A DNA stretch of 64,000 bases from contig CM075996.1 in the NCBI GenBank assembly GCA_038087875.1, positions 6,388,001 to 6,452,000 of the forward strand, in the 5' to 3' direction. Positions 1,511-64,000 of this stretch are shown piece after piece. The DNA comes from Malacoraja senta. Its lineage: Eukaryota. The notes under the pieces were generated by a model that was given only the letters and a program-made list of their open reading frames with translations, did no database searches and was not told the origin of the DNA. Position 1 is the first letter of the stretch. Each line of letters opens with the position of its first letter. A program made the translations under genes and the position numbers.

Positions 1511-1554
1511 GCCTTATGTCTATGTTTAGTATATTCTGACTTCTGGTCACTCAC

Positions 1555-38941: not shown

Positions 38942-39002
38942 ATGAAGATCACGGACTTCCTCGTTGCAGGAGAAGTGGCGGCTGCCCTCGCCGAGTGCAA
39001 CG
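38942..39002 (+). CDS. PVALB: Parvalbumin/oncomodulin-like gene, coding exon 1 (MKITDFLVAGEVAAALAECN)
   Basis: Acceptor tttttcaacAG at 38934, ATG at 38942, 61 coding nt and a GT donor at 39003, matching canonical parvalbumin exon size. The symbol is family-level. Confidence 0.92.
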
Positions 39003-43306: not shown

Positions 43307-43439
43307 ATCCAGGATCCTTCCACCTCAAGAGATTTTCCCAGACCTCTGGTCTCGCCAAGAAATCTTCGGAAGAGATGGGGAAAATCTTCGGCATTCTCGA
43401 CGAGGACGGAAGTGGCTTCATTGAGAAGAGTGAGCTCAA
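43307..43439 (+). CDS. PVALB: Parvalbumin/oncomodulin-like gene, coding exon 2 (DPGSFHLKRFSQTSGLAKKSSEEMGKIFGILDEDGSGFIEKSELK; CD EF-hand)
   Basis: ttccAG acceptor, 133 nt, GTAAG donor; EF-hand loop DEDGSGFIEKSE. Confidence 0.95.
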
Positions 43440-43664
43440 GTAAGCAACTCCTCATTGCTCTCTAAACCTCCGCGGACATTGGAATTTATCTCTGGAGCTT
43501 GAGTTTGCGTTTAAGGTGAGAGAGGCTGGCAGCATCGTCAAGGACCCACACCATCCTGGCCACACACTCATCTCCCCGCTACCTTCGGGTAGAAAGTACA
43601 GGAGTCTGATATCTGCAACATCCAGGTTCAGGAATAGACACTTCCCCACAGCCATCAGGCTATT

Positions 43665-45020
43665 TTAGACCTGTCGCACTAACATCAGTTGCCATGAAGA
43701 CCTTTGAGCACATAGTCCTCACCCATCTGAAAACATACACTGTCCCCATCATGGACCCGTTTCAATTTGCATACAGCGCCAACCGGTCTGTGGAGGATGC
43801 TATCAACCTAGCTCTTCACTACTCCCTACATCATTTGGATCACCGAACACTTATGCACGCATCCTATTTATAGATTTTAGCTCGGCCTTTAATACTATAC
43901 ACCCAATTAAACTCTACAATAAACTGTTGGACATGGGCATTCACCTAGCCATGTGCCATTGGATTTTACATTTTCTCACAAACAGACAACAAAGAGTCAA
44001 GGTGGGTGAAAAACTCTCCAGCCCTCTGACTATCAATACAGGAGCCCCTCAAGGGTGCGTTCTGTCACCTCAGCTCTTCTCACTTTACACCAACAACCTC
44101 ACATCCCAATACAGCTCAGTTAAAATTTTCAAATATGCAGACGACACGACAATAATTGGCCTCATCTCAGACAACAATGAATCACAATACCATCAAACAG
44201 TGGACAGCGCAGTCAAATGGTGCGCAGAAAACAACCTCCAGCTTAACACCTCAAAAACCTTAGAAACCATCATAGATTTCAGACGCAAACAAAACCTCAA
44301 ACCCGCGGTCCATGTCAACTCCCATCCCATAACCTCCACGAACTTATTTAAGTTTCTGGGCACCTATATCTGCAATAATCTAAAATGGCACATCAATGCT
44401 GACCACATCATTAAGAAAGGACAACAACGCCTATACTTCCTCAGACAGCTCAAGAAGTTCAGAGTCCACAAACACCTCCTGGTACGCTTCTATCAATCCA
44501 TCATTGAAAGCATCATCACCTCCTCAATCAGTCTGGTACGGAAACACTGACAGTCACTCACTACACAGAATACAGCGCATTGTCTCCAAGGCCTCTAGGA
44601 TCATCAACTCTCCCCTCCCCTCAATCTTTACCTCCAACGTACCTCAAAACGGGCAACAAAGATCATCTCGGACCCCTCCCATCCAGCAAACCACCTTTTC
44701 CAGTCTCTCCCTTCAGGGAGGCGCCTTAGGTCACTTGCTACAAAATCCACCCGTTTTAAAAACAGTTTCTTCCCCTCAGCAATAAGAACACTTAATTCCC
44801 TCCAATAACTTTTTGACTTTGATGTATACAGTGTCTTGTCTATGGTTTTTGTCTGTTCTTTTGCACTATGTATTGTTGGTGAGATTTGTGATTTGTGATG
44901 TGCTTTATTATTATTGTTGTTAGTGTTAATGTGCTAAAGCAGTACCATCATGTACCGAACCCAATTACCACCAACCCTGGTCGTGTGGCAAATAAAGTTT
45001 CTATTCTATTCTATTCTATT
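43665..45020 (+). mobile_element. Rex1/Babar-like LINE (degenerate RT) in a parvalbumin intron
   Basis: [30 protein letters not shown]; (CTATT)n tail. Confidence 0.92.
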
Positions 45021-45085
45021 AAACTCAACTCAAACAAAACTCTGATCATTAATAGCCCAATGCACTTTATCTGTTTATTTATTTA

Positions 45086-45095
<10 letters not shown>

Positions 45096-45153
<58 letters not shown>
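45096..45153. repeat. (TA)n microsatellite
   Basis: Visible run. Confidence 0.98.
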
Positions 45154-45159
<6 letters not shown>

Positions 45160-46009
45160 AGTATATGGACACACTGATCTGTTCTGTATTTATGCCTACT
45201 ATATTCTGTTGTGCTGAAGTAAATCAAGAATGTAATTGTCCTATGTTAGAAGGAACATTTAGACAGATGTCTGAACAGGCAGGCAGTAGAGGGATAAGGA
45301 CCATCCAACTCTTAATCAGTACAAGTGTCAGAGGGAGAGATACAGTAGATCAGCCATGATTGAATGGCGGAGTACACTTGATGGGCCGAATGGTCTAATT
45401 CTATTTCTTCTGACCATGTGCAGGCAGATGGGATTAGTAAGATTTACATCATGGTCAGTGCAGATATGATGGGCCGAAGGGCCTATTTCTGTATTGTGTG
45501 TTCTGTTATAATATTAGCAGCTGGAAAACTTTAGTTTAGTTTAGAGATACGTCGCGGAAACAGGCCCTTCGGCCCACAGCGCCTGCGCCGACCATCGATC
45601 CCCACACATTAACACTATCCTACACACACTGGAAACAATTTACAATTATACCAAGCAAGTTAGCCTACACACCTGCACGTCCTTGTGGGAGGAAACCGGA
45701 GATCTCAGAGAAAACTCACAGGTCACGGGGAGAAAGTACAAACTCCGTACAGACAGCACCTGTAGTCGGGATTGAACCTGGGTCTCTGGCGCTGTAAAGC
45801 AGCACCATTGTGCCACCTTGTGCAGGGAAAAGGTTACAGGGAGCATTCACCTGCATTACATAGTAACTGTACACTGTGGACAGCTTGATTGTAATCATGT
45901 ACAGTTCTTTCTGTGACTGGATAGCACGCAGCAAAAGAGCAGTTCACTGCACCTTGGTACACGTGGCAATAAACTAAACTGAAGTGATGGACTCCTCTTT
46001 ACTTTAAAG

Positions 46010-46119
46010 GCTGTTCCTACGGTACTTCTGTCCAGAAGCCCGAGAGTTGAGTGACGCTGAGATGGACAGTTTCGTCTCCGCTGGAGATGTAGATGGAGAT
46101 GGCAGGATTGATTGCGGTG
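46010..46119 (+). CDS. PVALB: Parvalbumin/oncomodulin-like gene, coding exon 3 (LFLRYFCPEARELSDAEMDSFVSAGDVDGDGRIDCG; EF EF-hand)
   Basis: AG acceptor, 110 nt, GTAAGT donor; conserved AR.L...E salt-bridge motif and loop DVDGDGRIDCGE. Confidence 0.95.
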
Positions 46120-46345
46120 GTAAGTTTCTACACATTTTAAAATGCTTCACTGTATTTGGGCAGCACGGTGGCGCAGCGGTAGAGCTGTTGCCTTACAGCG
46201 CCAGAGACCCAGGTTTGATCCTGACTATGGGTGCTTGTCTGTACGGAGTTTGTACGTTCTCCCCATGACCTGCATGAGTTTTCTCCGAGATCTTCGGTTT
46301 CCTCCCAAACTCCAAAGTCGTGCAGGTTTGTAGGTTAATTGGCTT

Positions 46346-46817
46346 GATACGAGATTGATCCCTGGGATGGCGGGACTGTCATATGAGGAAAGATTGAAAA
46401 GACTAGGCTTGTATTCACTGGAGTTTAGAAGAATGAGGGGGAATCTTATAGAAACATATACAATTATAAAAGGACTGGACAAGCTAGATGCAGGAAAAAT
46501 GTTCCCAATGTTGGGTGAGTCCAGAACCAGGGGCCAGTCTTAGAATAAAGGGGAGGCCATTTAAGACTGAGGTGAGAAAACACTTTTTCACTCAGAGTTG
46601 TGACTTTGTGGAATTCCCTGCCACAGAGGGCAGTGGAGGCCAAATCACTGGATGGATTTAAGAGAGAATTAGATAGAGCTCTAGGGGCTAGTGGAATCAA
46701 GGGATATGGGGAGAAGACAGGCACGGGTTATTGATTGGGGACGATCAGCCATGATCGCAATGAATGGCGGTGCTGGCTCAAAGGGCCGAATGGCCTCCTC
46801 CTGCACCTATTTTCTAT
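46346..46817 (+). mobile_element. CR1 3' fragment nested in a SINE (46160-46920)
   Basis: CR1 C-terminal motifs; the paralogous SINE at 59540-59830 is uninterrupted. Confidence 0.9.
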
Positions 46818-46927
46818 ATAAATTGTCCCTTGTGTGTGATGGATAGTGTTAATGTGCGGGGATCGCTGGTCGGCGCAGACACGGTGGGCCGAAGGGCCGG
46901 TTTCCGTGCTGTATCTCAAAGTAAAGA

Positions 46928-47745
46928 CTATATCCCTTACTCCCAATTTCTCGTCTCCGCCACATCTGCGCCCAAAATGAGATGTTCCATACCAGGACAT
47001 TCGTAATGTCCTCATTCGTTAGTGAAATGGGGTTCCCTACTTCTATCATTGATGAGGCCCTCACATGTGTCTCCTCGGTACTCCGCAGCTCCGACCTTGC
47101 TCCGCCTCTCCCAGTCACAACAAAGACAGGGGCCCCCCCCGCCCATCAGCCATCGCATACAACACATAATCCTCTGAAATTTTCACCACCTCCAACAGGA
47201 TCCCAACACCAGTCACATTTTTCCAGCTCCACCCCTTTCCGCCTTCCAGAGACCTTCTCACCACAACTCCCTGGTTAACTCATCCTTTCCCAGCTAAACC
47301 ACCCCCTCCCCAGGTACCTTCCCCTGCAACTGTAGGAGATGCAAAACCTGTCCCTATACCTCCTCCCTCGATTCTGTCCAGGGACCCCGACAGTCCTTTC
47401 AGGTTTGGCAGAGGTTCACCTGCGCCTCCTCCAACCTCATCTACTGTATCTGTTGTTCAAGATGCAGACTCTTATACATCGGCGAGACCAAACGTAGACT
47501 GGGCGATCGTTTCGCTGAACACCTTTGCTCAGTCCGCCTGAACCTACCTGATCTCCCGGTTGCCAAACACTTTAAATCCCCCTCCCATTCCCAAACTGAC
47601 CTTTCTGTCCTAGGCCTCCTCCATTGTCAGAGCGAAGCTAAACGCAAATTGGAGGAACAGCATCACATATTTCGCTTGGGCAGCTTTCAACCCAGTGATA
47701 TTAATATTGATTTCTTTGAATTCAAATAACCCCGACATTCGCTCT
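46928..47745 (+). mobile_element. Penelope-like element remnant (RT C-terminus and GIY-YIG endonuclease)
   Basis: IPYSQFL.., GTFPCNCRRCKTCPY, FTC.SSNLIYCI.CSRC.LLYIGETKRRLGDRFAEH, LPVAKHF. Confidence 0.9.
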
Positions 47746-48073
47746 CTGTTTACCCCCCCCCCCCCCACCCAAGTCGCATCATAGTCAGAGTCTAGGAGTC
47801 GCAGTGTGGAAACAGGCCATTTGGTCCAACTTGCCCTCACCAGCCAACATGTCCCAACTATATTAGTTCCACCTGCCTGCATTTGGCCTATACCCCTCTA
47901 AACCTGTACCTGTCTGTTTCTTAAACATTGTGATAGTACCTGCCTACAGTACATCCTCTGGCAGCTCGTTCTATACACCCACCACCCTTTGTGTGAAAAT
48001 GATACCAGCAGATTGTTTGTGTAGGATAGAAAGTAACCTCAAAATGCTGACCTCAGCTGTTCTGAACCTGCAG

Positions 48074-48099
48074 AATTCCTGAGTCTGATAAGTACGTAA
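48074..48099 (+). CDS. PVALB: Parvalbumin/oncomodulin-like gene, last coding exon ((E)FLSLIST*)
   Basis: ctgcAG acceptor and TAA at 48097-48099. Total CDS is 61+133+110+26 = 330 nt, i.e. 109 aa plus stop. Confidence 0.9.
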
Positions 48100-48259
48100 G
48101 GATAAATCGGATGAAGATTCCCTTCAAGTTGTCGCTCCCAAACCCACCTCTGGAAACAATGGAAAATACCTGGAATTCTTCAAATCGATCAGCGCTCTTC
48201 CTGTGTCGTTGAGTTGTACCCGAACAAATTGTCACTGCTGGATTCAGTCAAGTAACAGC

Positions 48260-48265
48260 AATAAA
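48260..48265 (+). terminator. Polyadenylation signal of the parvalbumin-like gene
   Basis: AATAAA about 160 nt after the stop codon. Confidence 0.65.
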
Positions 48266-50964
48266 ATCTCTTTGTGAACCACTGTCTGCCTTTGTTTTAG
48301 AACATAGAAGAATATTCCACTCCTTCCTTAAAGGACGTTCTTTTAGAAAGGAGGAGAAATTTCTTTACTCCTGTGAAGTGCACAGAAAACGGGCATTTCG
48401 GCCCAGAATGTTTGTGCTGAACATGCGCCTATCCTAAAAGCCTCTTAAACACCACTACGGTAACTGCCTCCATCACTACCCTATGCAATGCGTTCTAGGC
48501 CCCTACCACTCTCTGCAAAATAAAACATGCCCCACACATCTCCATTAAACTCCCTCTCTCTGCCCTCTAGTTAGCCATTTCCACCCCAGGAAAAAAAGGC
48601 TCTGACTGTCTCCCCTATCTGTGCCTCTCATAATTTTACTAACTTCTATCAAGTCTCCCCACAATATCTGACGTTCCAGAGAAAAAAAATGCAAGTCTGT
48701 CCAACCTCACCCTGTGGCTGAAGTCTTCTAATCCAGGCAGCCTTTTGGTAAACCTCCTCTGCACCATCTCCAAAGCCTTCACTTCCAGAATTGCACGCAG
48801 TACTCCTAATGCGGCCTGACCAAAGAGCTGCACCATGACTTTGGTCCTTGAGAATAAGGGGTGGGATGTCTTTGGCTGCTTGCAATGATAGTCAGAGTGA
48901 TACACCGTGGAAACAGGCCTTTCGGCCCAACTTGCCCACACCAGTCATCATGTTCCCACTTCACTGTCGATATACCTCCAAACCTGTCCTATCCATATAA
49001 CTAACTGTTTCTTAAACGTTGGGAAAGTCCCTGCCTCAACTACCTCCTCCGGCAGCTCGTTCCATTCAACCACAACCCTTTGTGTGAAAAAGTAACCCCT
49101 CAGATTCCTATTAAATAATTTCCCTTTCACCTTAAACCTATGCCCCCTGGTCCTCAATTCCCCCATACTCTGGGCAAGAGACCCTGTGCATCTACCAGAT
49201 CTATTCCTCTCATGATTTTGTACACCTCTTATAAGATCACCCCTCATCCTCCTGTGCTCCAGGTAATAAAGTCCGAGCCTGTCCAACCTCTCCATGTAGC
49301 ACAGGCACCTCGAGTCCTGGCAACGTCCCCGTAAATCTTCTCAGCTTAACGATTTTCCAGCTTAACGATTTTGCAGAGATGCTGCCTGACCCAGAGATCA
49401 GCCATCCATGTCCTCCAGAAATGTTGTATGAAGAGTAGATTCTGCCCAATGTTACTTGAAGATGCTTTTGACCAAATGTAGCAGCCTGACGCAGATGGAC
49501 ACAGCCAGTGTAGATATGTCACCGCTCTATACAAACTCACAGGAGAAACTCACTGATGTTAAAGAACTTTATAAAAGACTATTTTTTAAATTACTGCAAC
49601 GAAAGAGCACATTGAGGCAAACAAGAGATTGGATAGAATGGAATTAGTTATTTTTTTAGACTGTACAAAAACGATTTTGATCAGCTCTTGTATTCACACT
49701 ATAAACATAAATCACAAATATAACTAGATTAATTGGTAACTGCCATGCTTGAGAGCTAATCAAATATCAAAGAGACACAAAAAGCTGGAGTAACCCAGCG
49801 GGTTAGACAACATCTCTGGAGAAAAGGAATTGGTGACTTTTCGGGTCGAGACTCTTAACCAAACTGCAATGTGGACTTTAACCAAGACTTGGTCAGTAAT
49901 CACTAATATTGCGTTTAGTTTAGAGATAGTGTGCAAACAGGCCCTTCAGTCCATCAAGGCCACGACGACCACCGATCACGCGTCCACTAGAGTTCAATGT
50001 TATCCCAGTTTCGCATCCTACACACTAGAGGCAATTCACAAAAGCCAATTAACCGACAAACCTGCACGTCTTTGGAATGTGGGAGGAAACCGGAGTACCC
50101 GGGGTCACAGGGAGAACGTACAAACTCCACACTGGCAGCACCCGTCAACGGGATCGTACCCGGGTCCCTGGCGCTGTGAGGCAGCTGCTCTACAACTCAT
50201 TACAAAGCTTATTAAATGTTAGCTACTTGATTTACATCTTTTAACCATCTCATCATTATCGTTGGTAGTGTCAGTCCTCAGGAATCCTAAATGGATGAGT
50301 AATGCCTATGAGTGATCTCTCCAGCAATCCCATGGTGAACTCCAAACTACCTGCGGTGAACCCTCAGCTCTTTGGTATAATGGTGGGAGGGTGAAGAGTA
50401 AGGAGATAGCCACCGCCATCAAAAACACAGGAGCAATCCAGTTTTAAGCTGATTTTAAACTAATGGCTAAATTACAAAAATTGGAACGCTGGAATGTTTA
50501 GAGTTTAGAGATACAGCATGGAAACAGGTCCGTCATCCCATCGAGACCGCGTCGACCATCGATCGACCCGTTCACACTAGTTCCATGTCCCACACTGCAG
50601 GGGCAATATACAGCAGCCAATTAGCCTACAAACCCGTACGTCTTTGGGATGTGGGAGGAAACCGGAGAAAACCCACGCGGTCACAGGGAGATGGTGCAAA
50701 CTCCATATAGGCAGCCTATCGCTGCGCTGGAGCAGAATTAGGCCATTCGGCCCATCAAGTCTCATCCCCTTTCTCCTGCTTTCTCGGCACCCGTACTAAT
50801 CGAGAATCTGTCTATCTTAAAACCTGCCTTAAAAATATCCTGCGCACAAGTAGACTGCGCTGAGCTAGAGTCAAAATGCCGCCTGGATGTCAAGAACCGT
50901 TCCCTAACATAGCACAGTCACTGACATACTCAGCGCCACATGCGTGAAACTTCAGTACGGTGGT

Positions 50965-51585
50965 CCATGCTTAGGTAATGCTGAGGCTCTAGAAGGCGTG
51001 GGTTGGGCCTCATTTGGATTATTGTGAGCAGTTTTGTGCTCCACATCCAAGGAGGGATGTGGAGGCTTTGTAGAGGGTCCAGAGGACGATTACGAGAATG
51101 CTCCCAGGAATGAGTGGGTTCACGTATGATGAGTGTCTGATGGCACTGAGCCTGTACTCGCTGGAATTTAAAATGATGTGGGGGGGTGGGGGGGACCTCA
51201 TTGAAACTTTCCAAATAGTGAAAGGCCTGGATAGTGGATGTTTCCACTAGTGGGAGAGTCAAGGAGCAGAGCCCACAGCCGCCAAATAAAAAGGAGATGA
51301 GGATGAATTTCTTTAGTCAGAGGGTGGCGAATCTGTGGAATTCATTGCCACAGAAGGCAGGGTTGATGGCCGAAATATATAATGCCAAAATATATTAATC
51401 TAATCTGCCTGTACATGGTCCATATCCCTCAATTTCCTGAATTGATACTGTAGATTCCTGTTTAGTACGGATGTCAGGGGTGATGGGGAGAAGGCAGAAG
51501 GGGGTTAGGAGGGAATGAGAGATCAGCCATGACTGAATCGTGGAGTGGACTCAATGGGCCGAGTGACCTAGTTGTGCTCCTGTCA
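50965..51585 (+). mobile_element. Old CR1 fragment directly 3' of the TRIM stop codon
   Basis: Degenerate RPHL.YC.QF..RVQR...RMLPG..LYSLEF..RVANLWNSLP. Confidence 0.8.
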
Positions 51586-51593
51586 CCGATGCA

Positions 51594-53561
51594 CTAAGAG
51601 AGGTCCAGCTGGTACACGGTGATGAACCCGTTGCCTTGGGTGACGACCAGATTGTTGCAATTGTCGACGGTGATGACGCGTGGTTTGTGAAGGCCGTCGG
51701 CGGCAGTCAGCAGCTCCTCCCGGAAGTCCCCGCCGGGCCAAAACAAGAGGATCCGGTTCCGCTCGGTGACCATAATATTGTCGTCTTCGTCCGTGCAGAT
51801 GCTGTAGGGACAGATCGCCCGGCCCACTCCGTTCACGGTGACCTGGTCACAGGTGGTGAAGACGTAGCCGTCCCTGTCGAAGATCAGGATGCACTTCTTG
51901 CCGCAGTCGGCCACGATGAACCGTTCGTCGCTATTGATGGCGAGGAAGAGGAAGCGCCCCCCCTCGTAGCCGTACGGCTGCACCCTGTCGACCACCTGCC
52001 CGTTGATGTCGTACAGGGAGAGGGAGCACATGGAGCCCTCGCTCACCGCCACGTATTCATCCTGGTAGGCGGCGAGGTGGTAGACGGACTCGGAGCCGCG
52101 GAGGAAGAGCTTCCTCTGCATGGTCCCGTCCATGTCCAGCATGTACAGCCGGTTCCCAGACGAGCAGGCAATGGTGTCGTCAAAGATGGCAACACTGCAT
52201 GGTTCGTCATCATCGTCCGGCAGTGAGATGGTCGCGGTGAGATGCCCGTAGTTGGTGAAGGATTTCAGAAGGGAATTGTCCTCGTCCGCCACCACAATGA
52301 TGCCGTCACTGGAGATGCTGACGCCCGTCAGCTTCGGATCACACACGTCACCACCCAGCTCCGTTTCGAAGCAATGTAGATTCCATGCCCTCTGCTTGGG
52401 TTGGGGAAGGGGAGCGAAGGCCGGCGGGCTCTTGCGCGGCTCGATTTTCGCTGGAGCGGCCAGGATCTTGGGGGCTGAGTCTTCGCCAAAGGTGACGCTG
52501 AAAAGGTTGGAGTGAGACAGTATGCTCTTGAGCGACTCGTTGACGGTCAGGCTGGGGCGGGTCTTCTTGTCGTCCGGGACCCTCGGCGCTTGGAGTCCAT
52601 CGATCTGTTCTTCCACGACGGACCGCAGGCAGACTATTTCCCTCATTTTACCGGAATCCAAGACCCCCTGGGAAAATTCCCTGGTGTCCTTCGCCTTCTT
52701 GATCTTGAGCTGAATATCATCCCGCGCGACCTTGTACAACTCTTCCTGCTCCCTGACGTAACTGGAGAGCATGTCCTTGATGGTGTCACCCTGTTTCATC
52801 AAGTTGTTTGTGACCTCGGTCAGGGTGCACTCTATCATAGACATCAGAGATCTTTCCGTCACCTTCATCCCCTCCATTGCCTGGACGATGTCGTCTTCCT
52901 GTTGGACCAGCGACTGTGTGTCAGTCTTCAGTCTCTCCATGAGATTCATCACCGTAGGTGTCTCTGTGGCCCCTGCCTTGGCCAGGGACACGTTCGAGTG
53001 CTTGGCGTGGGCGTGCGAGGAACAACTGCTGCAGATCACGCTGTTGCAGGTGTTACAGAGATAGTCCACCAGGGTTCCTGGGTGGCCCTGGCAGTAGATC
53101 ATCTTCTGCATCTTTGTCTCTGCCTCGCAAGGGGCGGCGCCGTGACCGGGCAGATCTTCCAGCTCGTGGCATGGGTTGGCAGTCCCGTGGGTGAGTTTGC
53201 AAGGCGGGCAGAGGCACTTGAGGCAGGTTTTACACTGAACAACGGCGGCAATCTCGCTGCGACCAGCTGTCGCGCACCAACTACAGATCACCTTCTCGTT
53301 CTCCTTGCTCTTGAAGATATCCATCAGACTGTTGATGTGAAAGTTAGTCTTGAGTTTGCTGACGCCACCACTCACATCAAACTCTTCCCTGCACTCCGGG
53401 CACTGCACCTTCTGGTCTGACCTAACCATCTTCTCCAGGCACCCGTGGCAGTAGGTGTGGGCACAAGGCAGCATCTTGGGCTGCGTGAACCAACTGAGGC
53501 AGATCTTGCAGTTTAATAGATCATTTTGTATAAGATCCGTAATATCCCCCGACATGGCCAT
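51594..53561 (-). CDS. TRIM56: TRIM56-like E3 ubiquitin ligase (RING, B-boxes, coiled coil, NHL-like repeats), single coding exon, 655 aa
   Basis: RING CKIC..PK.LPCAHTYC..CL..V.CPECR..KTNF.IN.L.D closely resembles TRIM56. B-box2 C..H.....Y.C.TC...IC..C....H..H; NHL-type motifs IVVADEDN, FIVADCG and KPR.ITVD. No filamin domain is visible. Splice acceptor tgttgcAG at 53576. Orthology is not proven. Confidence 0.93.
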   Translation of the reverse strand: MAMSGDITDLIQNDLLNCKICLSWFTQPKMLPCAHTYCHGCLEKMVRSDQKVQCPECREEFDVSGGVSKLKTNFHINSLMDIFKSKENEKVICSWCATAGRSEIAAVVQCKTCLKCLCPPCKLTHGTANPCHELEDLPGHGAAPCEAETKMQKMIYCQGHPGTLVDYLCNTCNSVICSSCSSHAHAKHSNVSLAKAGATETPTVMNLMERLKTDTQSLVQQEDDIVQAMEGMKVTERSLMSMIECTLTEVTNNLMKQGDTIKDMLSSYVREQEELYKVARDDIQLKIKKAKDTREFSQGVLDSGKMREIVCLRSVVEEQIDGLQAPRVPDDKKTRPSLTVNESLKSILSHSNLFSVTFGEDSAPKILAAPAKIEPRKSPPAFAPLPQPKQRAWNLHCFETELGGDVCDPKLTGVSISSDGIIVVADEDNSLLKSFTNYGHLTATISLPDDDDEPCSVAIFDDTIACSSGNRLYMLDMDGTMQRKLFLRGSESVYHLAAYQDEYVAVSEGSMCSLSLYDINGQVVDRVQPYGYEGGRFLFLAINSDERFIVADCGKKCILIFDRDGYVFTTCDQVTVNGVGRAICPYSICTDEDDNIMVTERNRILLFWPGGDFREELLTAADGLHKPRVITVDNCNNLVVTQGNGFITVYQLDLS

Positions 53562-53989
53562 GATGTGGACACAACCTGCAACAGATCAGAGGACACAATG
53601 AGGTAGTTGAGGCTGGTTAGACAGGTACAGTTAGACAGGTACATGAATGGACAGGTTTGGAGGGATATGGACAAAGCACAGGCATGAGGGAAACAGCTGT
53701 TTCCACACTGACTATGAGAAGTTTGCTCACGGAAAGTTTGGGTCCGTGAATCAAGAGTGTTTTATTTTCACACCAGACGCCCTGTGGAACTGTTGGATCC
53801 TCGTTGTGACGCCAGTCAAGTACACACGGAAGTATTTTGGCGATCCCCATCAGCCGCGCCCGTGCAGTTGGGGGAGGGTTGCCGGGCCCGGTATCCGCGC
53901 CTGCACAGTTGGGGGATGGTTGCCGGGCATCTTAATCTCGAAGAATTAAAGACATCCATTTGTATCATTAGAAAATAGACATCCTAATT

Positions 53990-54146
53990 GGCCTGTCCCA
54001 CTTAGGTGACTTTTTAGGCGACTGCAGGAGACTATGCGGGCTGGTGAAGGAAGCGATGTATGTGTGCGTGTTTACTCTGACAGTTTTACCGGCGACTGCC
54101 AGTGACTTGACATTCGCCTTAAAAATCGCCTAAGTGGGACAGGCCC
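53990..54146. mobile_element. Harbinger-type MITE
   Basis: GGCCTGTCCCACTTAGG / CCTAAGTGGGACAGGCC termini. Confidence 0.8.
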
Positions 54147-54635
54147 ATAAGCAAATTCAGCAGGTGAAAGAAATACGTGATCTCAACTTTGATCTTAGCT
54201 GATCTCAACTTTGTTAGAGTATGGATGGAGGTTGGTGACAGCAAACAGTTAGTAGTTGGAAACGGGATCAATAATCAGCAAGAATTAACTGACGACAGGA
54301 AGTGTGCATGTGCTTTTGAGAGTGGTTTGCCGGCAGGGTCAGTTTTCTCTCAAAAGTGCCCCTAGCTCCGACTGCACAGTTAAACATGCTGCTCTCCAAC
54401 TTCACCCAAGCATCAAACATGACCCCGACTTCAGCTTCCTACCACACACCTAAACATGCGTTCAAAACATTGGCACCTGCTGGAATATATCTAACAAGGC
54501 ATAAAGTGCTGGAGGAGGGCAGTGGGTCCGACAGCATCTCTGGAGAATACACCCGTTCATTGGGTCCCCATCGTGACAGGGGAAGAACTGCAGGTGCTGG
54601 CTTAAATCGACGATAGATACAAAATGCTGGAGTAA

Positions 54636-54857
54636 AGCCCCTGTCCCACTTGGATGACCTATGCCGACCTTTTACTCGTGGACATTTTTTAATCAGGTTG
54701 GAAAAAACGCTGCAACCTACTTGAGGCCACGAGTATGCGGAGACCACTCACGAGCATGAGGAAGAGTTACGAAGACCTTCCACGACCATGCTGCGAGTAC
54801 GTCAAGGGTAAACTCGGCAGAGGTCGGCAATTAGGTCATACAAGTGGGACAGGCTCT
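54636..54857. mobile_element. Harbinger-type MITE with TAA TSD
   Basis: TAA|AGCCCCTGTCCCACTTG...CAAGTGGGACAGGCTCT|TAA; the empty site GGAGTAACTCAG is present in the paralog at about 57551-57562. Confidence 0.88.
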
Positions 54858-55310
54858 TAACTCAGCATCTCTGGAGAGCAGGAATATTCACAACGGCCCG
54901 TGGACCTTTTGTGATGCCAGATGAACTGCAGATGCTGGTTTAAATCGAAGGTAGACATTACGGGTCCACGGGCCGTCTAGTATTCTTTAAAAATCACTGC
55001 CGATTGTTTGAGTTCAAATTCCTCAGGAGGTGGAGACGGCGGACGTGAGGAGCAAGGGCCGGTAGGAGGGTGAAGTGGGTTAATGCCTCCATCCAGCACC
55101 TTCAGGCTCGGCTGCAGGAGGAGCCCCCGGGACACAAAGATGGCCGGGCGTGGAGAGGAGAGGGACGTCGGTTCGCGGGAACTATAATATTGACTTATAT
55201 CGAAGATAGACACAAAGGGTCCACGAGCCATCTACTATTCTTTAAAAATCAATGCTTGAGTTCAAATACCTCAGGTCGTCGACTGCCGCGTTCAATATTT
55301 GACCACTCAC

Positions 55311-55530
55311 CTGTGCACGAGGCAATTCTCAGCAAAAATGGCAGTCCCGGGCGGGCAACTCTCCCCCAACTGCGCAGGCGCGACGGCCGCGTTCAAACGT
55401 GTACCGTTGAACCTTCCCCCAACCACGCAGGCGCGGCTGAGTGACGGGGCCGGCAATTGGGAGTGCAGTGCGCAGGCGCGGCTGACGGGGCCGGCAAGTG
55501 GGCGGGCACTGCGCAAGCGGGACTGCCGCT
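55311..55530 (-). promoter_or_regulatory. Candidate TRIM promoter and non-coding exon 1 (CpG-rich)
   Basis: Minus-strand CAG|GTGAGT donor at 55311/55310; YY1-like AAAATGGC at about 55335; NRF1-like TGCGCAGGCGCG at 55371 and 55469. Confidence 0.5.
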
Positions 55531-55865
55531 TTCAAACTTTTGTGCCGTTAACTTGACAGAAGGTCAATTGAAGTTTATGAAGGGAATAGATGACGTGTGG
55601 AGCCGTTTGTAAAATAGAAGGAAACTTACCCGTGGACCCGTTGCGAGGCCAGTTAACTGCACAGGTAAGTATGAGATAAAAAAGGCGACCTGAAAATTGC
55701 CAAAGGCAACCCTCAAAGGAAAAGGTAAAAGGGTTGCACGTAATTTCATCGGGTCAAAAGGCGTGACGCACGGAGCCGCTCAATCCGTCTGGAGGACATG
55801 GCAACCTCGGCATACACTGTTAACACACGAAACGCGTACTTTCTTACCAGTTAAAAACCGACGAA

Positions 55866-56070
55866 ATGGTCAATTTTTGCGCTGAAAATAATTGTGGAAA
55901 TCAGGGGAACCGTGAGAGACATTTATCCAACTTCAGAATTCCAAAAATGAAGTGAGAAGCGACAGCTGAAGGGACAACAACAGCTAAAGTAGTTTGCGAA
56001 CATTGGTCGTGCAGACATCAAGATTTAAAATATTGGGAATTATCACGTTTGCTCACTGCATTTCATCAAC
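55866..56070 (+). pseudogene. Degenerate THAP zinc-finger domain, probably from a DNA transposon (about 55727-56490)
   Basis: MVNFCAENNCGN..RERHLSNFRIPK, then in a shifted frame *FANIGRADIKI*NIGNYHVCSLHF: the THAP C-x-C..P..W..VCS.HF pattern with stops. Confidence 0.75.
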
Positions 56071-57466
56071 AGAGGCATTATTTGTGGTTTTTCTTGATTC
56101 CTTTGGTATCTAAAAAGTTTCAGGTGATAAATCTGGCTATAAACTTTTAAAATCGCCCATAGTTCTCAAGTGGGTTTTTACATACAAAATGAAAACGCTT
56201 CTGAAGCTAAATTTATCATTAAAAAAATCTCCAGACTTACGAGTGGTGTGTGGAAAAGTAAGTTTTCTATCATTATGCTAATGAGATGTATATTTTGGCA
56301 AATAATAAAATGTCCTGACAGCTTAAACACCCAGTCCCTATCAAAGATATTGTCAATTTGCTGAGGTTGATTATGTCCAATTAATAGCTAACAAACAATT
56401 ATGCCATTCATTGGCTTGCATCTGAGTAAAATGTAATTCAAAACCCACTTATGGTTTGCGATTTTTCTAATGATATGTAAAAAAGTAGCAATGATAAAGT
56501 CCTAGCCTGTCCAACCTCTCCCTGTATCTCAGGCATCTCGAGTCCTGGCAACGTCCTTGTAAATCTTCTCAGTACCCTTTCCAGCTTAACGATTTCGCAG
56601 AGATGCTGCCTGACCCAGAGATCAGCCATCCATGTCCTCCAGAAATGTTGGCTGAAGACTAAAGATGCTGCCCAATGCTTGAAGATGCATTTGACCAAAT
56701 GTAGCAGCCTGAGGCAGATGGACACAGCCAGTGTGGATATGTTGCCACTCTATACAAACTCACAGGAGAAACTCACTGATGTTAAAGAACTTCATAAAAG
56801 TTTAGTTAATTTTTTAATTACAGCAACGAAAGAGCGCATTGAGGCAAACGAGAGATTGGATCGAAAGGAATTAGTTGTTTTTTTTAGCTTGTGGGAAAAC
56901 GACATTTTGATAAGCTCTTGTACTCACGCTATAAACATAAATCACAAATATAACTAGATTAATTGGCGACTATTAATTATGCTTGAGAACTAATCAAAGA
57001 CCAAAGAGAGACACAAAAAGCTGGAGTAACTCAGCGGGTCAGACAGCATCTCTGGAGAAAAGGAATTGGTGACTTCTCGGGTCGAGACTCTTAATCAAAG
57101 TGCAATGTGGACTTCAACCAAGACTTGGTTAGTAATCACTAACATTACGTTTAGTTTAGATAATTAACCGATCACTGGAAGTGAGCATGTGCTTTTGAGT
57201 GGTTTGCTGGCAGGGTCAGTTTTCTCTCAAAAGCGCCCAGAGAGCTCCGACTGCACAGTTAAACATGCTGGTCTCCAACTTCACCCAAACATCAAACATG
57301 ACCCCGACTTCAGCTTCCTGCCATACACCTAAACATGCTGCAAAACATTGGCACCTTCTGGAATATATCTAACAACAAGGCACAAAGTGCTGGAGGGCAG
57401 TGGGTCAGGCAGCATCTCTGGAGAATACACCGGTTCGTTGGGTCCCCGTTGTGACGCGGGAAGAAC

Positions 57467-57500
57467 CAAAGATACTAGAGGAACTCCTCTAGTATCTTTG
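57467..57500. mobile_element. 34-bp TIR-only DNA transposon derivative with 8-bp TSD
   Basis: CAAAGATACTAGAGGA-AC-TCCTCTAGTATCTTTG flanked by GGAAGAAC on both sides; a single GGAAGAAC at the paralogous site 54581-54588. Confidence 0.9.
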
Positions 57501-58187
57501 GGAAGAACTGCAGATGCTGGCTTAAATCGACGAGAGACACACAAAATGCTGGAGTAACTCAGCATCTCTGGAGAGCAGGAATATTCACGACGACCCGTGG
57601 TGACGCCAGATGAACTGCAGATGCTGGTTTAAATCGAAGGAAGTCCACTGGCCGTCTGGTATTCTTTAAAAATCACTGCCGATTGTTTGAGTTCAAATTC
57701 CTCAGGTGGTCGAGATGGTGGAGACGGCGGACGTGAGGAGCAAGGGCCGGTAGGAGGGTGAAGCGGGGTAATGTCTCCATCCAGGCTCGGCTGCAGGAGG
57801 CGCCCCCGGGACACAAGGATGACCGGGCGGGGAGAGGAGAGGAGGGGAACGTCGTTTCGCGGGAACTATAATATTGACTTAAATCGAAGATAGACACAAC
57901 GGGTTCACGGACCGTCTACTATTCTTTAAAAATCACTGGCGTTTGCATGGGTTCAAATACCTCAGGTCGGCGACTGCCGCGCTCAATATTCGACCACTCA
58001 CCTGTGCACGAGGCAATTCTCAGCGAAAATGGCGGTCCCGGGCGGGCAACCCTCCCCCCAACTGCGCAGGTGCGGCTGACGGGGCCCGCACTGCGCAGGC
58101 GCGACGGCGGCGTTCAAACTTGGGCCGTTGACGGTTGAACCCTCCTCCCAACTGCGGATGCCGGGCTGAGTGACGGGTCCGGCGGCA

Positions 58188-58385
58188 GGTGGGAGCGCAC
58201 TGCGCAGGCGCGGCAGACGGGGCCGGCAAGTGGGAGCGCACTGCGCAGGCGCGGCCGACGGGGCCGGCAAGTGGGAGCGGACTGCGCAGGCGCGGCCGAC
58301 GGGGCCGGCAAAAGTGGGAGCGCACTGCGCAGGCGCGGCTGACTGACGGGGCCGGCAAGGTGGGAGCGCACTGCGCAGGCGGGAA
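58188..58385. repeat. GC-rich ~41-46-bp minisatellite (5 units)
   Basis: GTGGGAGCGCACTGCGCAGGCGCGGCCGACGGGGCCGGCAA units; the TGCGCAGGCG core starts at 58201, 58242, 58283, 58326 and 58372. Confidence 0.92.
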
Positions 58386-58774
58386 CTGCCGCGAGCGTTC
58401 AAACTTTTGTGCCGTTGACTTGACTGCAAAAAGTAAATGAAAGTTTATGAAGAGAATAGACGACCTGTGGAGTCGTTTGTAAAATAGAAGGAAACTTACC
58501 CCGGGACCCGTCACTCAGTCAAGTGTACAGGTTAATATGAGGCCAGTCAAGTGCACAGGTTAATATGAGATAAACAAAAGGCGATCTGAAAATCACCAAA
58601 GGTGACCCTCAATGGAAAAGGTTAGATGGAGCATCGACCTGCATTACACAGTAACTAACTGGACACTGTGAACAGCTTGATTGTAATCATGTACAGTCTT
58701 TTCTCTGACTGGATAGCACGCAACAAAAGAGCAGTTCACTACACCCTGGTGATGGACTCCTCTTTACTTTAAAG

Positions 58775-59494
58775 GCTGTTCCTCCGGTACTTCTGTCAAG
58801 AAACCCGAGAGTTGAGTGACGCTGAGATGGACAGTTTGGTCTCCGCTGGGGATGGAGATGGAGATGGAGACGGCAGGATTGGACAATAGACAATAGGGTG
58901 CAGGAGTAGGCCATTCGGCCCTTCGAGCCAGCACCGCCATTCAATGTGATCATGGCTGATCATCCACAATCAGTGCCCCGTTCCTGCCTTCTCCCCATAT
59001 CCCCTGACTCCGCTATCTTTAAGAGCTCTATCCAACTCTCTCTTGAAAGCATCCAGAGGATTGACCTCCAGTGCCTTCCGAGGCAGAGAATTCCACAGAT
59101 TAACGACCCTCACGATTTCACGAGTGAAAACGTTTTTCCTCATTTCCGTTCTAAATGGCTTACCTCTTATTCTTAAACTGTGGCCCCTGGTTCTGGATTC
59201 CCCAACATCGGGAACATGTTTCCTGCATCTAGTGTGTCCAAACTCTTAATAATCTTATATGTTTCAATAAGATTCCCTCTCATCCTTCTAAATTCCAGAG
59301 TTACAAGCCCAGCTGGTACATTCTATCAACATCTGACAGTCCCGCCATCCCGGGAATTAACCTTGTGAACTTACGCTGCACTCCCTCAATAGCAAGAATG
59401 TCCTTCCTCAAATTTGGAGACCAAAACTGCACACAATACTCCAGGTGTGGTCTCTCTAGGGTCCTGTACAACTGCAGTAGGATTGATTGCGATG
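58775..59494 (+). pseudogene. Duplicated orphan parvalbumin exon (EF-hand exon) disrupted by a CR1
   Basis: LFLRYFCQETRELSDAEMDSLVSAGDGDGDGDGRI then CR1 (58882-59478), then the remainder ATTGCGATG|GTAGGT. No accompanying exons are seen in this copy. Confidence 0.92.
58882..59478 (-). mobile_element. CR1 3' fragment with 7-bp TSD
   Basis: AGGATTG at 58875-58881 and 59479-59485; CR1 C-terminal motifs on the minus strand. Confidence 0.9.
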
Positions 59495-59831
59495 GTAGGT
59501 TTATACACATTTAAAAACGCCTCACTGCGTTTGAGCGGCTTGGTGGCGCAGCGGTAGAGTTGCTGCCTTACAGTGCCAGAGAACCGGGTTCGATCCTGAT
59601 TATGGGTGCTGTCTGTATGGAGTATGTACGTTCTCCCCATGACCTGCATGGGTTTTCTCCCAGATATTCGGTTTCCTCCCACACTCCAAACTCGTGCAGG
59701 TGTGTAGGTTAATTGGCTTGGTATGAATGTAAATTGTCCCTTGTGTGTGTTGGGTAGTGTTAGTGTGCGGGGATCGTTGGTCGGCGCGGACTCGGTGGGC
59801 CAAAGGGCTTTGTTCCGTGCTGTATCTCTTA

Positions 59832-60816
59832 TTATCCCTTGCTCCCAATTCCTCCGTCTATGCCACATCTGCGCCCAAGATGAGGTGTTCCATACCAGCA
59901 CATCCGTAATGTCCTCATTCTTTAGGGAACGGGGGTTCCTTTCTTCCATCATTGATGAGGCGCTCACACGTGTCCTCGGTACTCCGCAGTTCCGCCCTTG
60001 CTCCCCCTCCCCCTCCCCGTGTCTTAATAGAGACGGAGTCCCCCTAGTCCTTACCTTCCACCTCATCAGCCGTCGCATACAACACATAATCCTCCGAAAT
60101 TTTTGCCACCTCCAACGGGATCCCAACACTAGTCACACCTTCCCAGCTCCACCCCTTTCCACCTTCCGCAGAGACCATTCCGCAACTCCCTGGTTAATTC
60201 ATCCCTTCCGACCAAAACCCCCCCATCCCAGCTACCTTCCCCATCAAACCCCTCCTTCAACTCTGTCCAGGGACCCCGACAGCCCTTTCAGGTTAGGCAG
60301 AGGTTCACTTGAACCACCTCCAACCTCATCTACTGTATCCGTTGCTCAAGATGTGGACTCTCATACATCGGCGAGACCAAGCGTAGACTGGGCAATCATT
60401 TCGCTGAACACCTTCGCTCAGTCCGCCTGAACCTACCTGATCTCCCGGTTGCCAAACATTTTAATTTCCCCGCCCATTCCCACACTGACCTTTCTGTCCG
60501 AGGCCTCCTCCATTGTCAGAGTGAGGCTAAATGCAAATTGGAGGAACAGCATCTTGTATTTCGCTTGGGCAGCTTACAACCCAGCGGTATGAAGGTTGAT
60601 TTCTTTGAATTCAAGTAACCTCGGCATTCCCCCTCTCTCTCTATCCCCCTCCCCACCCAAGCTGTGCCAGTTTCCCGTTCTCACCCAACAAACAGCTAAC
60701 AATGACCTGTTTCCTTTATCATTGTTACTTCTTTGCATATCTTTCATTCATTTGTTCTATATCTCCCTACATCATCGTCTATATCTCACGTTTCCCTTTC
60801 CTGTGACTTTCAGTCT
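59832..60816 (+). mobile_element. Penelope-like element remnant (paralog of 46928-47745) with longer 3' region
   Basis: IPCSQFLRL.HICAQDEVFH..PLVLTFH..YIGETKRRLG..FAEHLRSV. Confidence 0.9.
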
Positions 60817-61675
60817 ACCTCCGGCACTTCGTTCCATACACCCATCACCGTTTGTGTCAAAGAGTTACCCCTCAGATTCCTATTAAACCATTTCCCCTTC
60901 ACCTTAAACCTATGCCCCCTGGTCCTCGATTCCCCCATTCTCTGGGCAAGAGACCCTGTGCGTCTATCCAATCTATTCCTCGCATGATTTTGTACACCTC
61001 TTATAAGATCACCCCTCATCCGCCTGTGCTCCAGGGAATAAAGTCCTAGCCTGTCCAACCTCTCCCTGTTGCTCAGGCATCTCGAATCCTGGCAACGTCC
61101 TTGTAAATCTTCTCAGCACCCTTTTCAGCTTAACGATTTTGCAGAGATGCTGCCTGACCCATAGATCAGCCATCCATGTCCTCCAGAAATGTTGTTTGAA
61201 GAGTAAAGATTCTGCCCAATGTTACTTGAAGATGCTTTTGACCAAATGTAGCAGCCTGACACAGATGGACACATCCAGTGTAGATATGTCACCGCTCTAT
61301 ACAAACTCACAGGAGAAACTCACTGATGTTAAACAATTTCATAAAAGTTTATTTAATTTTCTAATTACAGCAATGAAAGAGCACATTGAGGCAAACGAAA
61401 GAATGGATCGAATGGAATGATCAGTTTTTTTTAGCTTGTATGAAAGTGACATTTTGATAAGCTCTTGTACTCACGCTATAAACATAAATCACAAATATGA
61501 TGAGATTAATTGGTGACTGCCATGCTTTAGAGAGCTAATCAAAGAGAGACAAAAAGCTGGAGTAACTCAGCGGGTCAGACAGCATCTCTGGTGAAAAGGA
61601 ATTGGTGACTTTTCGGGTCGAGACTCTTAATCAAAGTGCAATGTGGACTTTAATCAATACTTGGTCTGTAATATT

Positions 61676-63216
61676 TAGCGATGTTGCAAAACCTACCTTC
61701 AGCGGCGCTACAGTTCTGCCACTGGCCATGTGCGCGACTTTGGCGCCTTTGGGGGGGGGAGGCGGGATTAAATGCAGTTTTGCACTGCTTGTTGGAGAGG
61801 GATTTCCTCGGGCTGCTAGCTGATGAAGAAAAATCGATCGGACTTCCGCTCCCGTTTAAAAAAAAATCGCTGGACAATTTAATAATTGGATTAAAATAAA
61901 ATGCGACTTCGAACGCCTACAACGTGACGGATCGTAATGACAGGACAAAACAAAGGTAAGTCGTCTATTTTACATATAATCTTGCTTCTTGGGATGGCTT
62001 TAATCTAATTTTGCGAAAATGTTATTTGGGCCCCGTAGGAACCGGCCATGTCTTTCCTGCCGATATGGGGTTCAAATTCACCGCAAGCGCAATGTTCCAA
62101 TCATTCGAGTTCCAGAAACACCCACTCGCAAGATAATTTAAATGCTCTTTTTTTTGGACAATCATGTCATAAGAGCATCTAAATTGTCTATATTTTGTGT
62201 TACTGTCTATCCATAGTCAATATTTTTATACTAAATATACACAACAGTTTTAGCCACATCTATTGTGCAAAAAATAATAATTTTGATTGTATTGAGTGGA
62301 TGTTTCTAGATTAATTTATGGAACTAAAACATTACATTCCTTCCATCTGGCATATAAATTAATGACTGAGATTTAAAAATCATGTTATATTGTGAATTCT
62401 TGTGTGAATGGGATTATTGTTATTTGGATACTTAGGCTATTTAAAAAATATATCCTTTTCTTCAGAAATGGAATCTACAGGACATTCTTAATGGGAAAGT
62501 AGTAGGCAGAAAGGGATGTCATGCGTAGTTTGAAGAGCAAAAACTTGTAGTTTATAATGCCAAAATTGAAAAGTTGAGGAAAAACAAGGTGTACAGAGTT
62601 GCTTATTGGTTACAATCTGAGGAGTATGATGATGCTATTGATTATGATATGCCAATGTACCAGCTAGCAACTGATCTTCTCCATAAAGACTTGGTCTATT
62701 GCTAGAAATTGTAATTTATTTACCTATCTGTTATGGACTTACAGCATATAATACAATAGTATTAAAGTTCTGATCTTGAGAATATCACATTTTTGAATTT
62801 TCAAGGCAGTCTGGGTGTTTATTACTATTTCCGTCACAACGGTCAATTTTGTAATTAGCTACAATTAGGTAATTAGCTAATTATATGCTTTAATTTCAGT
62901 TCATCCAAGTAAGATGTTTTATATTTGTTTCAGAATGCTTCAATCTATAATAACTGAAAATTTCATTCAGTTCTCTTAATTTTTAAGAAAGTTATGGGCT
63001 TTTGACTGTCCTCGATCACAGCTTTTATGTTAAGTCAATGGAAAAGCAATAGGGAACAAGATACTAATTTCCTAGTATGAAAATGGCCATAACTTTTTTA
63101 ATACTGAAGATGAAGAAAGTGAATTAGGTGTCAAATTAAACTTCTTTTTATGCTTTATCTGATGGGATAAATTGCAGACTTGATTTTTAAAATCTCAACA
63201 TTTTATAACATTGCTA
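61676..63216. mobile_element. Non-autonomous DNA transposon (imperfect 16-bp TIR, 7-bp flanking repeat)
   Basis: TAGCGATGTTGCAAAA / TTTTATAACATTGCTA; TAATATT on both sides; absent from the paralogous site near 49900. Confidence 0.8.
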
Positions 63217-64000
63217 TAATATTGCATTTAGTTTAGAGATACAGTGTGCAAACAGGCCCTTCAGCCCATCAACTCCATGCTGACAACAAACCAATCGTCC
63301 AAATGAGTTCTATGTTATCCCAGTTTCGCATCCTACACACTAGAGGCCATTCACAAAAGCCAATTAACCGACAAACCTGGACGTCTTTAGAATGTCGGAG
63401 GAAACCGGAGCACCCCGAAAAAACCCACACGGTCACAGGGAGAATGTGCAAACTCCACACTGGCAGCACCCGTCATCGGGATCGAACCTGGGTCTCTGGC
63501 GCTGTGAGGCAGCTGCTCTACATCTCTTTGCAAAGCTTATTAAATGTTAACTATTTGATTTAATAATCAAAAGCTTTCCCAATATCCTCAATGATCCTTA
63601 CTGAAGTAAACTTGTATTGTATTAGTGCATTTGTTTACATCTTTTAACCATCTCATCATTATCGTTGGTAGTGTCAGTCCTCAGGAATCCTAAATGGATG
63701 AGTAATGCCTATGAGTGATCTCTCCAGCAATCCCATGGTGAACTCCAAACTACCTGCGGTGAACCCTCAGCTTTTTGGTACAATGGTGGGAGGGTGAAGA
63801 GTAAGGAGATAGTCACCGCCATCAAAAACATAGGAGCAATGCAGTTTTAAACTGATTTTAAACTAATGGCTAAATTACAAAAACTGGAACGCTGGAATGT
63901 TTAGAGTTTAGAGATACAGCATGGAAACAGGTCCGTCATCCCATCGAGACCGCGTCGACCATCGATCGACCCGTTCACACTAGATCTATGTCCCACACTC

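Follow-up and report, generated by a model that had tools for sequence, protein, structure and literature searches.

What has been multiplied beside the parvalbumin gene of the skate Malacoraja senta, and how far has its neighbour been copied along with it? The window analysed here (the whole stretch of 64,000 nucleotides, contig CM075996.1, positions 6,388,001 to 6,452,000) holds an intact parvalbumin gene and, as its tail-to-tail neighbour, a TRIM56-like gene that we call T1. A first-pass annotation of the window had proposed a unit of about 10 kb, comprising the parvalbumin tail (block P), blocks A and C, the TRIM exon and block B, that recurs at least partly three times. We find that the tandem array is real and represents an ordinary expansion, within skates, of a TRIM56-like gene. 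Its repeating unit is A-C-TRIM-U, where U is a further block upstream of the TRIM exon, and contains neither the parvalbumin tail nor block B.

The amplified unit

A protein search of the genome with the 655-residue T1 product gave five strong TRIM56-like loci among the best 68 of 520 candidates, all within 50 kb and forming one array. T1 lies in the window and T2 to T5 lie within 38 kb past its end, all on the minus strand; the positions of T2 to T5, U and A6 are window coordinates continued along the same contig. The TRIM cluster forecast by the annotation is thus real, and the reading frame expected 1-3 kb past the window end is T2, at 2.0-3.9 kb past it. The members of the array are as follows.

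51594..53575, minus strand: T1, single coding exon of 655 amino acids (acceptor 53575, ATG 53561, stop 51594-51596)
65965-67945, minus strand: T2, with one extra C near codon 588 (frameshift), 663 amino acids as assembled
68204-70720, minus strand: U2, upstream of T2
73023-74999, minus strand: T3, open frame
83431-85409, minus strand: T4, with one G missing at codon 280 (frameshift), 305 amino acids as assembled
99329-101305, minus strand: T5, open frame
113950-115246: A6, an orphan A block that closes the array and is followed by no TRIM exon

The five copies share 91-95% DNA identity, that is 5-9% coding differences, and are 85-92% identical to T1 in amino acid sequence over the matched pieces; the frames of T1, T3 and T5 are open, and T2 and T4 carry one single-base frameshift each. 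In a unit map made after repeat masking, A occupies seven places, C four, the TRIM exon five and U four (upstream of T2 to T5). The third copy of the proposed 10-kb unit runs on past the window edge as A-C-T2-U, without B, and no copy of block B was found in the 140 kb downstream of the window. Carrying the self-comparison downstream recovered the duplicated blocks and the array, with U in the unit and B absent from it. Block U is GC-rich. On the minus strand it has a donor at 70540, followed by a TATA-like word, and it may comprise the promoter and 5' exons of T2 to T5. Block B, which has two local copies with parts that match dispersed repeats elsewhere, was considered as the family promoter and rejected, being composed of such repeats and missing from T2 to T5.

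How was the unit multiplied? All four U|A joins have the identical junction sequence, and for this reason it is likely that one founding U|A junction was propagated, which would have happened by unequal crossing-over. Units 2/4 and 3/5 are paired in A, C, U and coding sequence (p distances of 0.042 for A2/A4, 0.019 for C2/C4, 0.039 for U2/U4, 0.036 for A3/A5 and 0.022 for the intron pair u3/u5; coding-tree support 96/98 for T2+T4 and 98/98 for T3+T5), suggesting that units 4 and 5 arose later, when units 2 and 3 were duplicated together as one block. Ordinary unequal crossing-over of the A-C-TRIM-U unit, followed by birth-and-death, is in our judgement quite likely to account for the array. 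The two frameshifted copies and the orphan A block without TRIM are signs of the birth-and-death expansion that the annotation had envisaged.

Several points weigh against this account or against the analyses that accompany it. A2 starts at most ~10 bases from the position of the U|A junction, either by coincidence or through replacement of a former U1, and more than one order of events is possible left of unit 2, between T1 and A2. The A-block tree is weakly supported. The frameshifts of T2 and T4 are single bases in short homopolymers and could be assembly errors. Monophyly of the five Malacoraja senta copies, at odds with the grouping of T1 described below, is not rejected (approximately unbiased test, p-AU 0.067), and the codon models used below were run with our own code on five sequences, over 651/660 codon columns and on a fixed tree.

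The parvalbumin tail and the duplicated blocks

Self-BLAST of the window, with interspersed repeats marked, gave the block matches on which the following features are based. The labels CR1, SINE (short interspersed element), MITE (miniature inverted-repeat transposable element) and Penelope are those of the first-pass annotation or follow the general features of such elements rather than a repeat library.

38942..48099, plus strand: intact parvalbumin gene (coding exons 38942-39002, 43307-43439, 46010-46119 and 48074-48099)
45826..47773, plus strand: P1, donor of the parvalbumin-tail duplication; intron end, EF-hand exon, SINE and the annotation's Penelope-like remnant; starts at GGAAAAGGT
46349..46816: insertion of CR1 type present in P1 and not in P2 (empty site near 59726), resembling the window's other CR1-type copies at ~94%
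49036..49924: block A1, left edge of the array unit; core 49362-49755 unique, with 7 genome loci, all in the array
49904..50596: block C1; unique core 50231-50489, 2-5% differences among 4 copies; missing before T3
53771..55726: sequence upstream of T1, with block B1 at 54283-55726; built as a mosaic from dispersed repeats and occupying the place that U has in T2 to T5
54636..54857: MITE private to B1, with terminal inverted repeats and a TAA duplication
55731..56493: truncated high-copy element between B1 and A', with long inverted repeats
56494..58622: middle remnant; A' (56494-57160) directly abuts B' (57162-58622), C and the TRIM exon missing
57467: 34-bp hairpin in the middle remnant, flanked by a 9-base duplication
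58614..60661, plus strand: P2, the parvalbumin tail in a second, broken copy that begins with the GGAAAAGGT microhomology; EF-hand exon copy from ~58775, last exon missing
58882-59480: CR1 fragment private to P2, with a GGATTG duplication
60818-61672: A2, start of array unit 2, matching A1
61676-63217: 1.5-kb terminal-inverted-repeat element between A2 and C2, with a TAATATT duplication
63217 onward, past the window edge: C2, matching C1

P1 and P2 are colinear, both on the plus strand, and 81-88% identical. The remaining matches lie on the same strand: A1 with A2 (49046-49900 against 60818-61672, 89%), A1 with A' (49266-49924 against 56494-57160, 88%), B1 with B' (54283-55726 against 57162-58622, 77-89%) and C1 with C2 (49904-50596 against 63217-63999, reaching 97.5% for 50231-50596 against 63634-63999). 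Identity overall is 77-98%, with hundreds of matched bases that have no repeat in the first 44 kb of the window. The annotation was therefore right that a middle copy joins A to B at about 57160 without C and the TRIM exon, and that a third copy restarts at 58614, at the equivalent of 45826, lacks the last parvalbumin exon and has reached block C at the window edge.

The word GGAAAAGGT occurs at exactly three sites on the plus strand of the window: at 45826 where P1 starts, at 55718 where B1 ends, and at 58614 where B' meets P2. Since it stands at both parental ends and at the join, 58614-58622 is a 9-base stretch of microhomology at which the end of B meets the parvalbumin intron; a short identical word common to both parental ends at the junction is the mark of microhomology-mediated duplication. 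We suggest that a separate old duplication, likely by way of this microhomology, copied the parvalbumin tail once, and that deletions and transposon insertions would then have cut the copied segment down to the A'-B'-P2 debris. P1 and P2 differ at 12.2% of sites and B1 and B' at 9.4%, and synonymous divergence (dS) among the TRIM copies is 0.09-0.14, indicating that the tail duplication is about as old as the array.

The parvalbumin gene itself encodes 109 amino acids in 330 nt, with canonical splice sites, no internal stop and AATAAA at 48260, and its exons match parvalbumin chains (best E 3e-10 and 2e-6). The CR1 fragment at 58882 lies within the copied EF-hand exon, so that the P2 copy of this exon is broken.

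Could the 10-kb unit nevertheless be what was amplified, with T2 descending directly from T1? Within the window, P, A, C and B do recur in that order at the places the annotation gave them, and the microhomology at the B'|P2 join makes one early duplication of the span plausible. Yet block A has seven loci in the array, whereas the parvalbumin EF-hand exon occurs at two places genome-wide (P1 and P2). B is missing downstream, T2 to T5 carry a block U that is unmatched in 44000-64000 but for one 18-base low-complexity match, a T1+T2 clade is rejected (p-AU 0.006), and A2 and C2 are nearest by distance to A4 and C4. We consider this model improbable. The two genomic places of the parvalbumin exon, the repeat-built nature of B and the rejection of T1+T2 together imply that the tail was copied once, and the parvalbumin tail is a one-off broken passenger, outside the amplified unit. 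More improbable still is that the copies are uncollapsed haplotypes or mis-joins. An assembly gap does lie inside unit 4 (81508-81707), units 2/4 and 3/5 are sister pairs, and the comparison with read contigs covered 51600-59480, in 32 of ~297,000 pieces. The copies differ, however, by 5-9% in coding DNA, and each of the five private insertions is present in one copy and absent from the other; four of them have target-site duplications or terminal inverted repeats, and no clear duplication is seen for the CR1 at 46349. U3|A4-C4 lies left of the gap, and three other skate assemblies hold 4-8 family proteins, each set on one contig. One contig of run X1 bridges the A'|B' join with 0 differences, although X1 may be the assembly's own source. 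At the 58614 join a contig of X11, a different sample under the same organism code, covers 58422-58643 with 0 differences and runs 21 letters past the microhomology; bridging was defined as 31 letters past a join, and this contig is not counted. The annotation's case for real duplications, and not an uncollapsed haplotype, is thus upheld.

Three observations concern individual blocks. The core of block C (50231-50489) differs by 2-5% with no indels among its copies and is better kept than A, P or B, possibly as a 3' untranslated region element or through recent conversion. As for a poly(A) signal of T1, neither AATAAA nor ATTAAA is present on the minus strand in 49000-51600. Block A was considered as a coding exon and rejected, its 158-residue frame at 56481-56954 having no Pfam match and the A copies having non-triplet indels. 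The element at 55731-56493, most copies of which show 86-89% identity (best 40 of 4531 candidates), is likely to be a non-autonomous DNA transposon.

T1, its promoter and selection on the copies

The T1 protein of 655 amino acids comprises a RING domain, two B-boxes, a coiled coil, a disordered linker and an NHL propeller. The C3HC4 RING (PF00097, E 4e-9, residues 18-57) and one B-box (PF00643, residues 152-192) score above the Pfam cut-off, as does NHL (PF01436) by its whole-protein score; a second Cys/His cluster at ~95-133 is conserved across 16 aligned sequences and has no Pfam match. A continuous helix is predicted for 193-303, with a local pLDDT (predicted local distance difference test) of ~60-75, within a structure model of mean pLDDT 70 and predicted template modelling score 0.44 that has a beta-propeller from ~410 and a disordered linker before it. 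Residues 410-651 match the TRIM2 NHL domain by sequence (E 2e-14), and TRIM2 NHL is also the best Foldseek match (E 1.5e-18), followed by the NHL domains of TRIM71, Brat and TRIM3. The propeller fold is alike in TRIM2, TRIM3 and TRIM71 (target template modelling score ~0.75-0.78), but identity to the skate protein is 20-22% and no filamin domain was detected in the T1 protein. The open copies are predicted to encode RING E3 ligases in which the coiled coil would mediate dimerisation and the NHL propeller would bind RNA or protein targets.

What drives T1, given that it has no counterpart of block U? Homology to T2-T5 ends at 53770, with dispersed repeats beyond. These facts would suit a recent promoterless pseudogene, its U deleted lately and its frame still undecayed, which we regard as possible though not the favoured explanation. 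The frame is open over 1968 bases, whereas nearby non-coding duplicates carry 10-11 non-triplet indels per 1.1-1.4 kb. The nonsynonymous to synonymous ratio (omega) on the T1 branch is 0.32 (p 3e-4 against 1), indicating purifying selection, though this branch spans time before any loss of U. There may also be an alternative source of a promoter in a repeat-derived CpG-rich part of B1 (54960-55560, observed/expected 0.98), with candidate minus-strand donors at 55313 and 55632. T1 either uses another promoter, perhaps this one, or has lost U recently; it offers a testable case of promoter replacement. A contig of run X23 (another organism, its RNA status guessed) stops at 53578, 3 bases into the acceptor, with 118 letters unfitting. 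As a single contig of one study with non-T1 variants, it is not counted as evidence of T1 expression.

For the five copies as a whole omega is 0.40; the N-terminal half has 0.55 and the NHL region 0.29. The Nei-Gojobori ratio is 0.52. Branch omega is below 1 for T1, T2 (0.22), T3 (0.34) and T5 (0.42), with p at most 0.01; that of T4, 0.66, is not told from neutral (p 0.20), consistent with T4 being a real pseudogene, while the T2 value would make its frameshift either an error or very recent. Positive selection was not detected by comparing models M2a and M1a, a test of low power with five copies (likelihood-ratio statistic 1.06, p 0.59, no site posterior >0.8; p 0.54 for the N-terminal half and 0.60 for NHL). 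Incompatible sites, whose clustering would indicate gene conversion, were not significantly clustered (p 0.17 on 78 sites); with five sequences, tests of both kinds are weak.

Is this, then, an arms-race locus, in which the copies diversify under virus-driven positive selection, mainly in the NHL propeller? A long skate stem branch (0.33) would fit, as would the separate clade of Rhinoraja copies described below, implying expansion or homogenisation more than once. So would a segment of the NHL domain (T1 residues ~436-447, window ~52220-52255) that exists in two versions common to several genera, and the report that the restriction of viruses by human TRIM56 acts through the protein's NHL-like domain (PMC11768893). 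The null result for positive selection argues the other way, even with its little power, as do the lower omega of NHL than of the N-terminal half and the lack of significant recombination clustering. We find this interpretation doubtful. Of the two segment versions, one is carried by T1, T2, T4, Amblyraja 023 and Leucoraja 116, the other by T3, T5, Amblyraja 024/025/027, Leucoraja 114 and, partly, Amblyraja 087.

Other skates and the relation to mammalian TRIM56

Is the expansion peculiar to Malacoraja senta? TRIM56-like accessions number 8 in Amblyraja radiata, 4 in Leucoraja erinacea and 4 in Rhinoraja longicauda, each set on one contig. These genes belong to the same family, are 80-90% identical to T1 and are likewise multicopy. 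Other sharks and rays appear with one cluster each (11 clusters); in the 3 of the 11 whose members were examined, these amount to one gene per species. In trees that omitted a 215-residue Amblyraja fragment, T1 forms a clade with Amblyraja XP_032869023 and Leucoraja XP_055519116 (support 100/98 and 98/96 in two trees), which gives T1 a clear counterpart in both of these skates, though not in the third; that the Amblyraja copies form a single clade is rejected (p-AU 2e-84). The grouping of T1 implies that the array is older than these genera and has turned over since. The four Rhinoraja copies form a clade of their own (100/99), which points to separate expansion or homogenisation. Compared with the other skates, Malacoraja senta has five copies, and the pairs T2+T4 and T3+T5 are private to its genome. 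The annotation's lineage-specific immune cluster accordingly stands at the level of skates as a group, to which the sequences assign the expansion, and not of the species; its immune part is by analogy.

This is a routine tandem expansion, with counterparts already in the public annotations of three skates. Teleost finTRIMs are a tandem TRIM expansion, and the primate TRIM reservoir and bat TRIM duplications are reportedly tandem expansions by birth-and-death. The likeness lies in tandem copies, pseudogenisation and turnover among lineages. Those expansions are mostly of the PRY/SPRY type, with positive selection reported, whereas the skate array is of NHL-type TRIM genes, with none detected in its five copies. 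Skates thus provide a natural multi-copy series with which to ask whether NHL propellers diversify as PRY/SPRY domains do. A literature search, in which subscription journals were mostly not covered, found no description of the array or of a second TRIM56 lineage; the main text of PMC9774829 does not contain 'TRIM'.

Is the skate gene the counterpart of mammalian TRIM56? Human TRIM56 has the same domain plan as T1 and antiviral roles (PMC11768893), and TRIM56 is placed in TRIM-NHL subfamily C (PMC3503706). The two share RING, tandem B-box1 and B-box2, coiled coil, disordered linker and an NHL-type C-terminus. Unlike mammalian TRIM56, the skate protein has 655 amino acids and a short linker, is multicopy and falls in a sister vertebrate clade that holds a second Pogona gene. 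Among 1.84 billion representatives, those most closely related to the skate genes come from vertebrates and carry the name TRIM56 or TRIM56-like. With the skate genes these form a monophyletic clade in the broad sense, set apart from more distant relatives (support 100/99; TRIM2, 3, 32 and 71 were not identified in the tree). Within it, clade one holds lungfish, caecilian, turtle, snake and one Pogona gene, and clade two holds cartilaginous fishes, sturgeon, bichir, Albula, Megalops, salamanders and the second Pogona gene. The clade of the skate genes is sister to that of the reptile genes which bear the name 'Tripartite motif containing 56'. The tree was built under LG+G4, with no full-length mammalian TRIM56 among its rows, and its first version left out 44/149 representative matches outside 480-820 amino acids.

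True orthology, with the two-lineage tree an artefact, agrees with the shared architecture and with the T1 RING, whose best PDB match is human TRIM56 (5jw7, 72.5 bits, against 67.6 for TRIM2). It agrees too with a search of the skate genome for a second TRIM56 lineage, in which a caecilian TRIM56 query matched, among the best 68 of 483 candidates, the five array copies and three weak RING/B-box loci on contig C4, leaving the array as the only TRIM56-type family found. It may also be said for orthology that the composition of three reptile rows is unusual and that the group put to the test was picked once the first tree was known. Against orthology stand the two well-supported clades, each with its own Pogona gene (100/100 and 100/98), the rejection of lobe-finned-vertebrate monophyly (p-AU 0.002), and the human TRIM56 RING, which scores 111.7 bits with the clade-one Pogona gene and 90.7 with that of the skate clade. 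RING scores alone are nonetheless weak, since the lungfish, despite its place in clade one, scores 80.5 bits. On the sequence evidence we think orthology unlikely and the skate gene probably a paralogue of mammalian TRIM56. By the same token the 'TRIM56-like' genes of sharks, rays and basal bony fish probably form a separate paralogue lineage, so the function of mammalian TRIM56 is not transferable to them unchecked. An immune function of the array is thus an analogy with a probable paralogue, and the chances of an innate-immune role appear about evenly balanced.

A more far-reaching, and speculative, proposal would be that jawed vertebrates had two ancient TRIM56 lineages. The second would be the sole one found in the skate, kept in bichir, sturgeon, basal teleosts, salamanders and a lizard, with no mammalian member among named sequences. 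Skates would have expanded it more than once into an antiviral array exchanging NHL segments, and T1, the copy nearest parvalbumin, would still be functional on a repeat-captured promoter after losing that of the family.

Outside skates, related TRIM56-like accessions occur as a pair on a single contig in both Callorhinchus and Megalops, and Pleurodeles has two (public proteins P0033/P0037/P0191 and P0048/P0198); small duplications of the lineage thus occur there too. A further small TRIM-like cluster lies at 12672441-12717622 of contig C4 (L011-L013), where three tandem RING/B-box matches each contain one in-frame TAA.

The locus is flanked by a class C G-protein-coupled receptor (GPCR), parvalbumin, a rhodopsin-type GPCR in pieces and an exon encoding a GRB2-family SH3 segment. 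The class C pieces (7tm_3; window 1547-2473, minus strand), which we take to be GPRC5-like, lie in three frames beside a 200-N gap (2474-2673) and are either frameshifted or poorly assembled near it. The rhodopsin-family GPCR (L037:7337-8061, minus strand) is in two frames just before an assembly gap. The SH3 exon (L038:7045-7236, minus strand) encodes an N-terminal SH3 segment, possibly of GRAP2, and is a useful synteny marker. At L039:8742-9587 (minus strand) a 282-residue open frame has a DDE_Tnp_4 transposase domain. Within the window, a long CR1-type element at ~33938-35655 is flanked by a 591-bp direct repeat of 97.3% identity (33348-33938 and 35666-36256), far exceeding the normal length of a target-site duplication.

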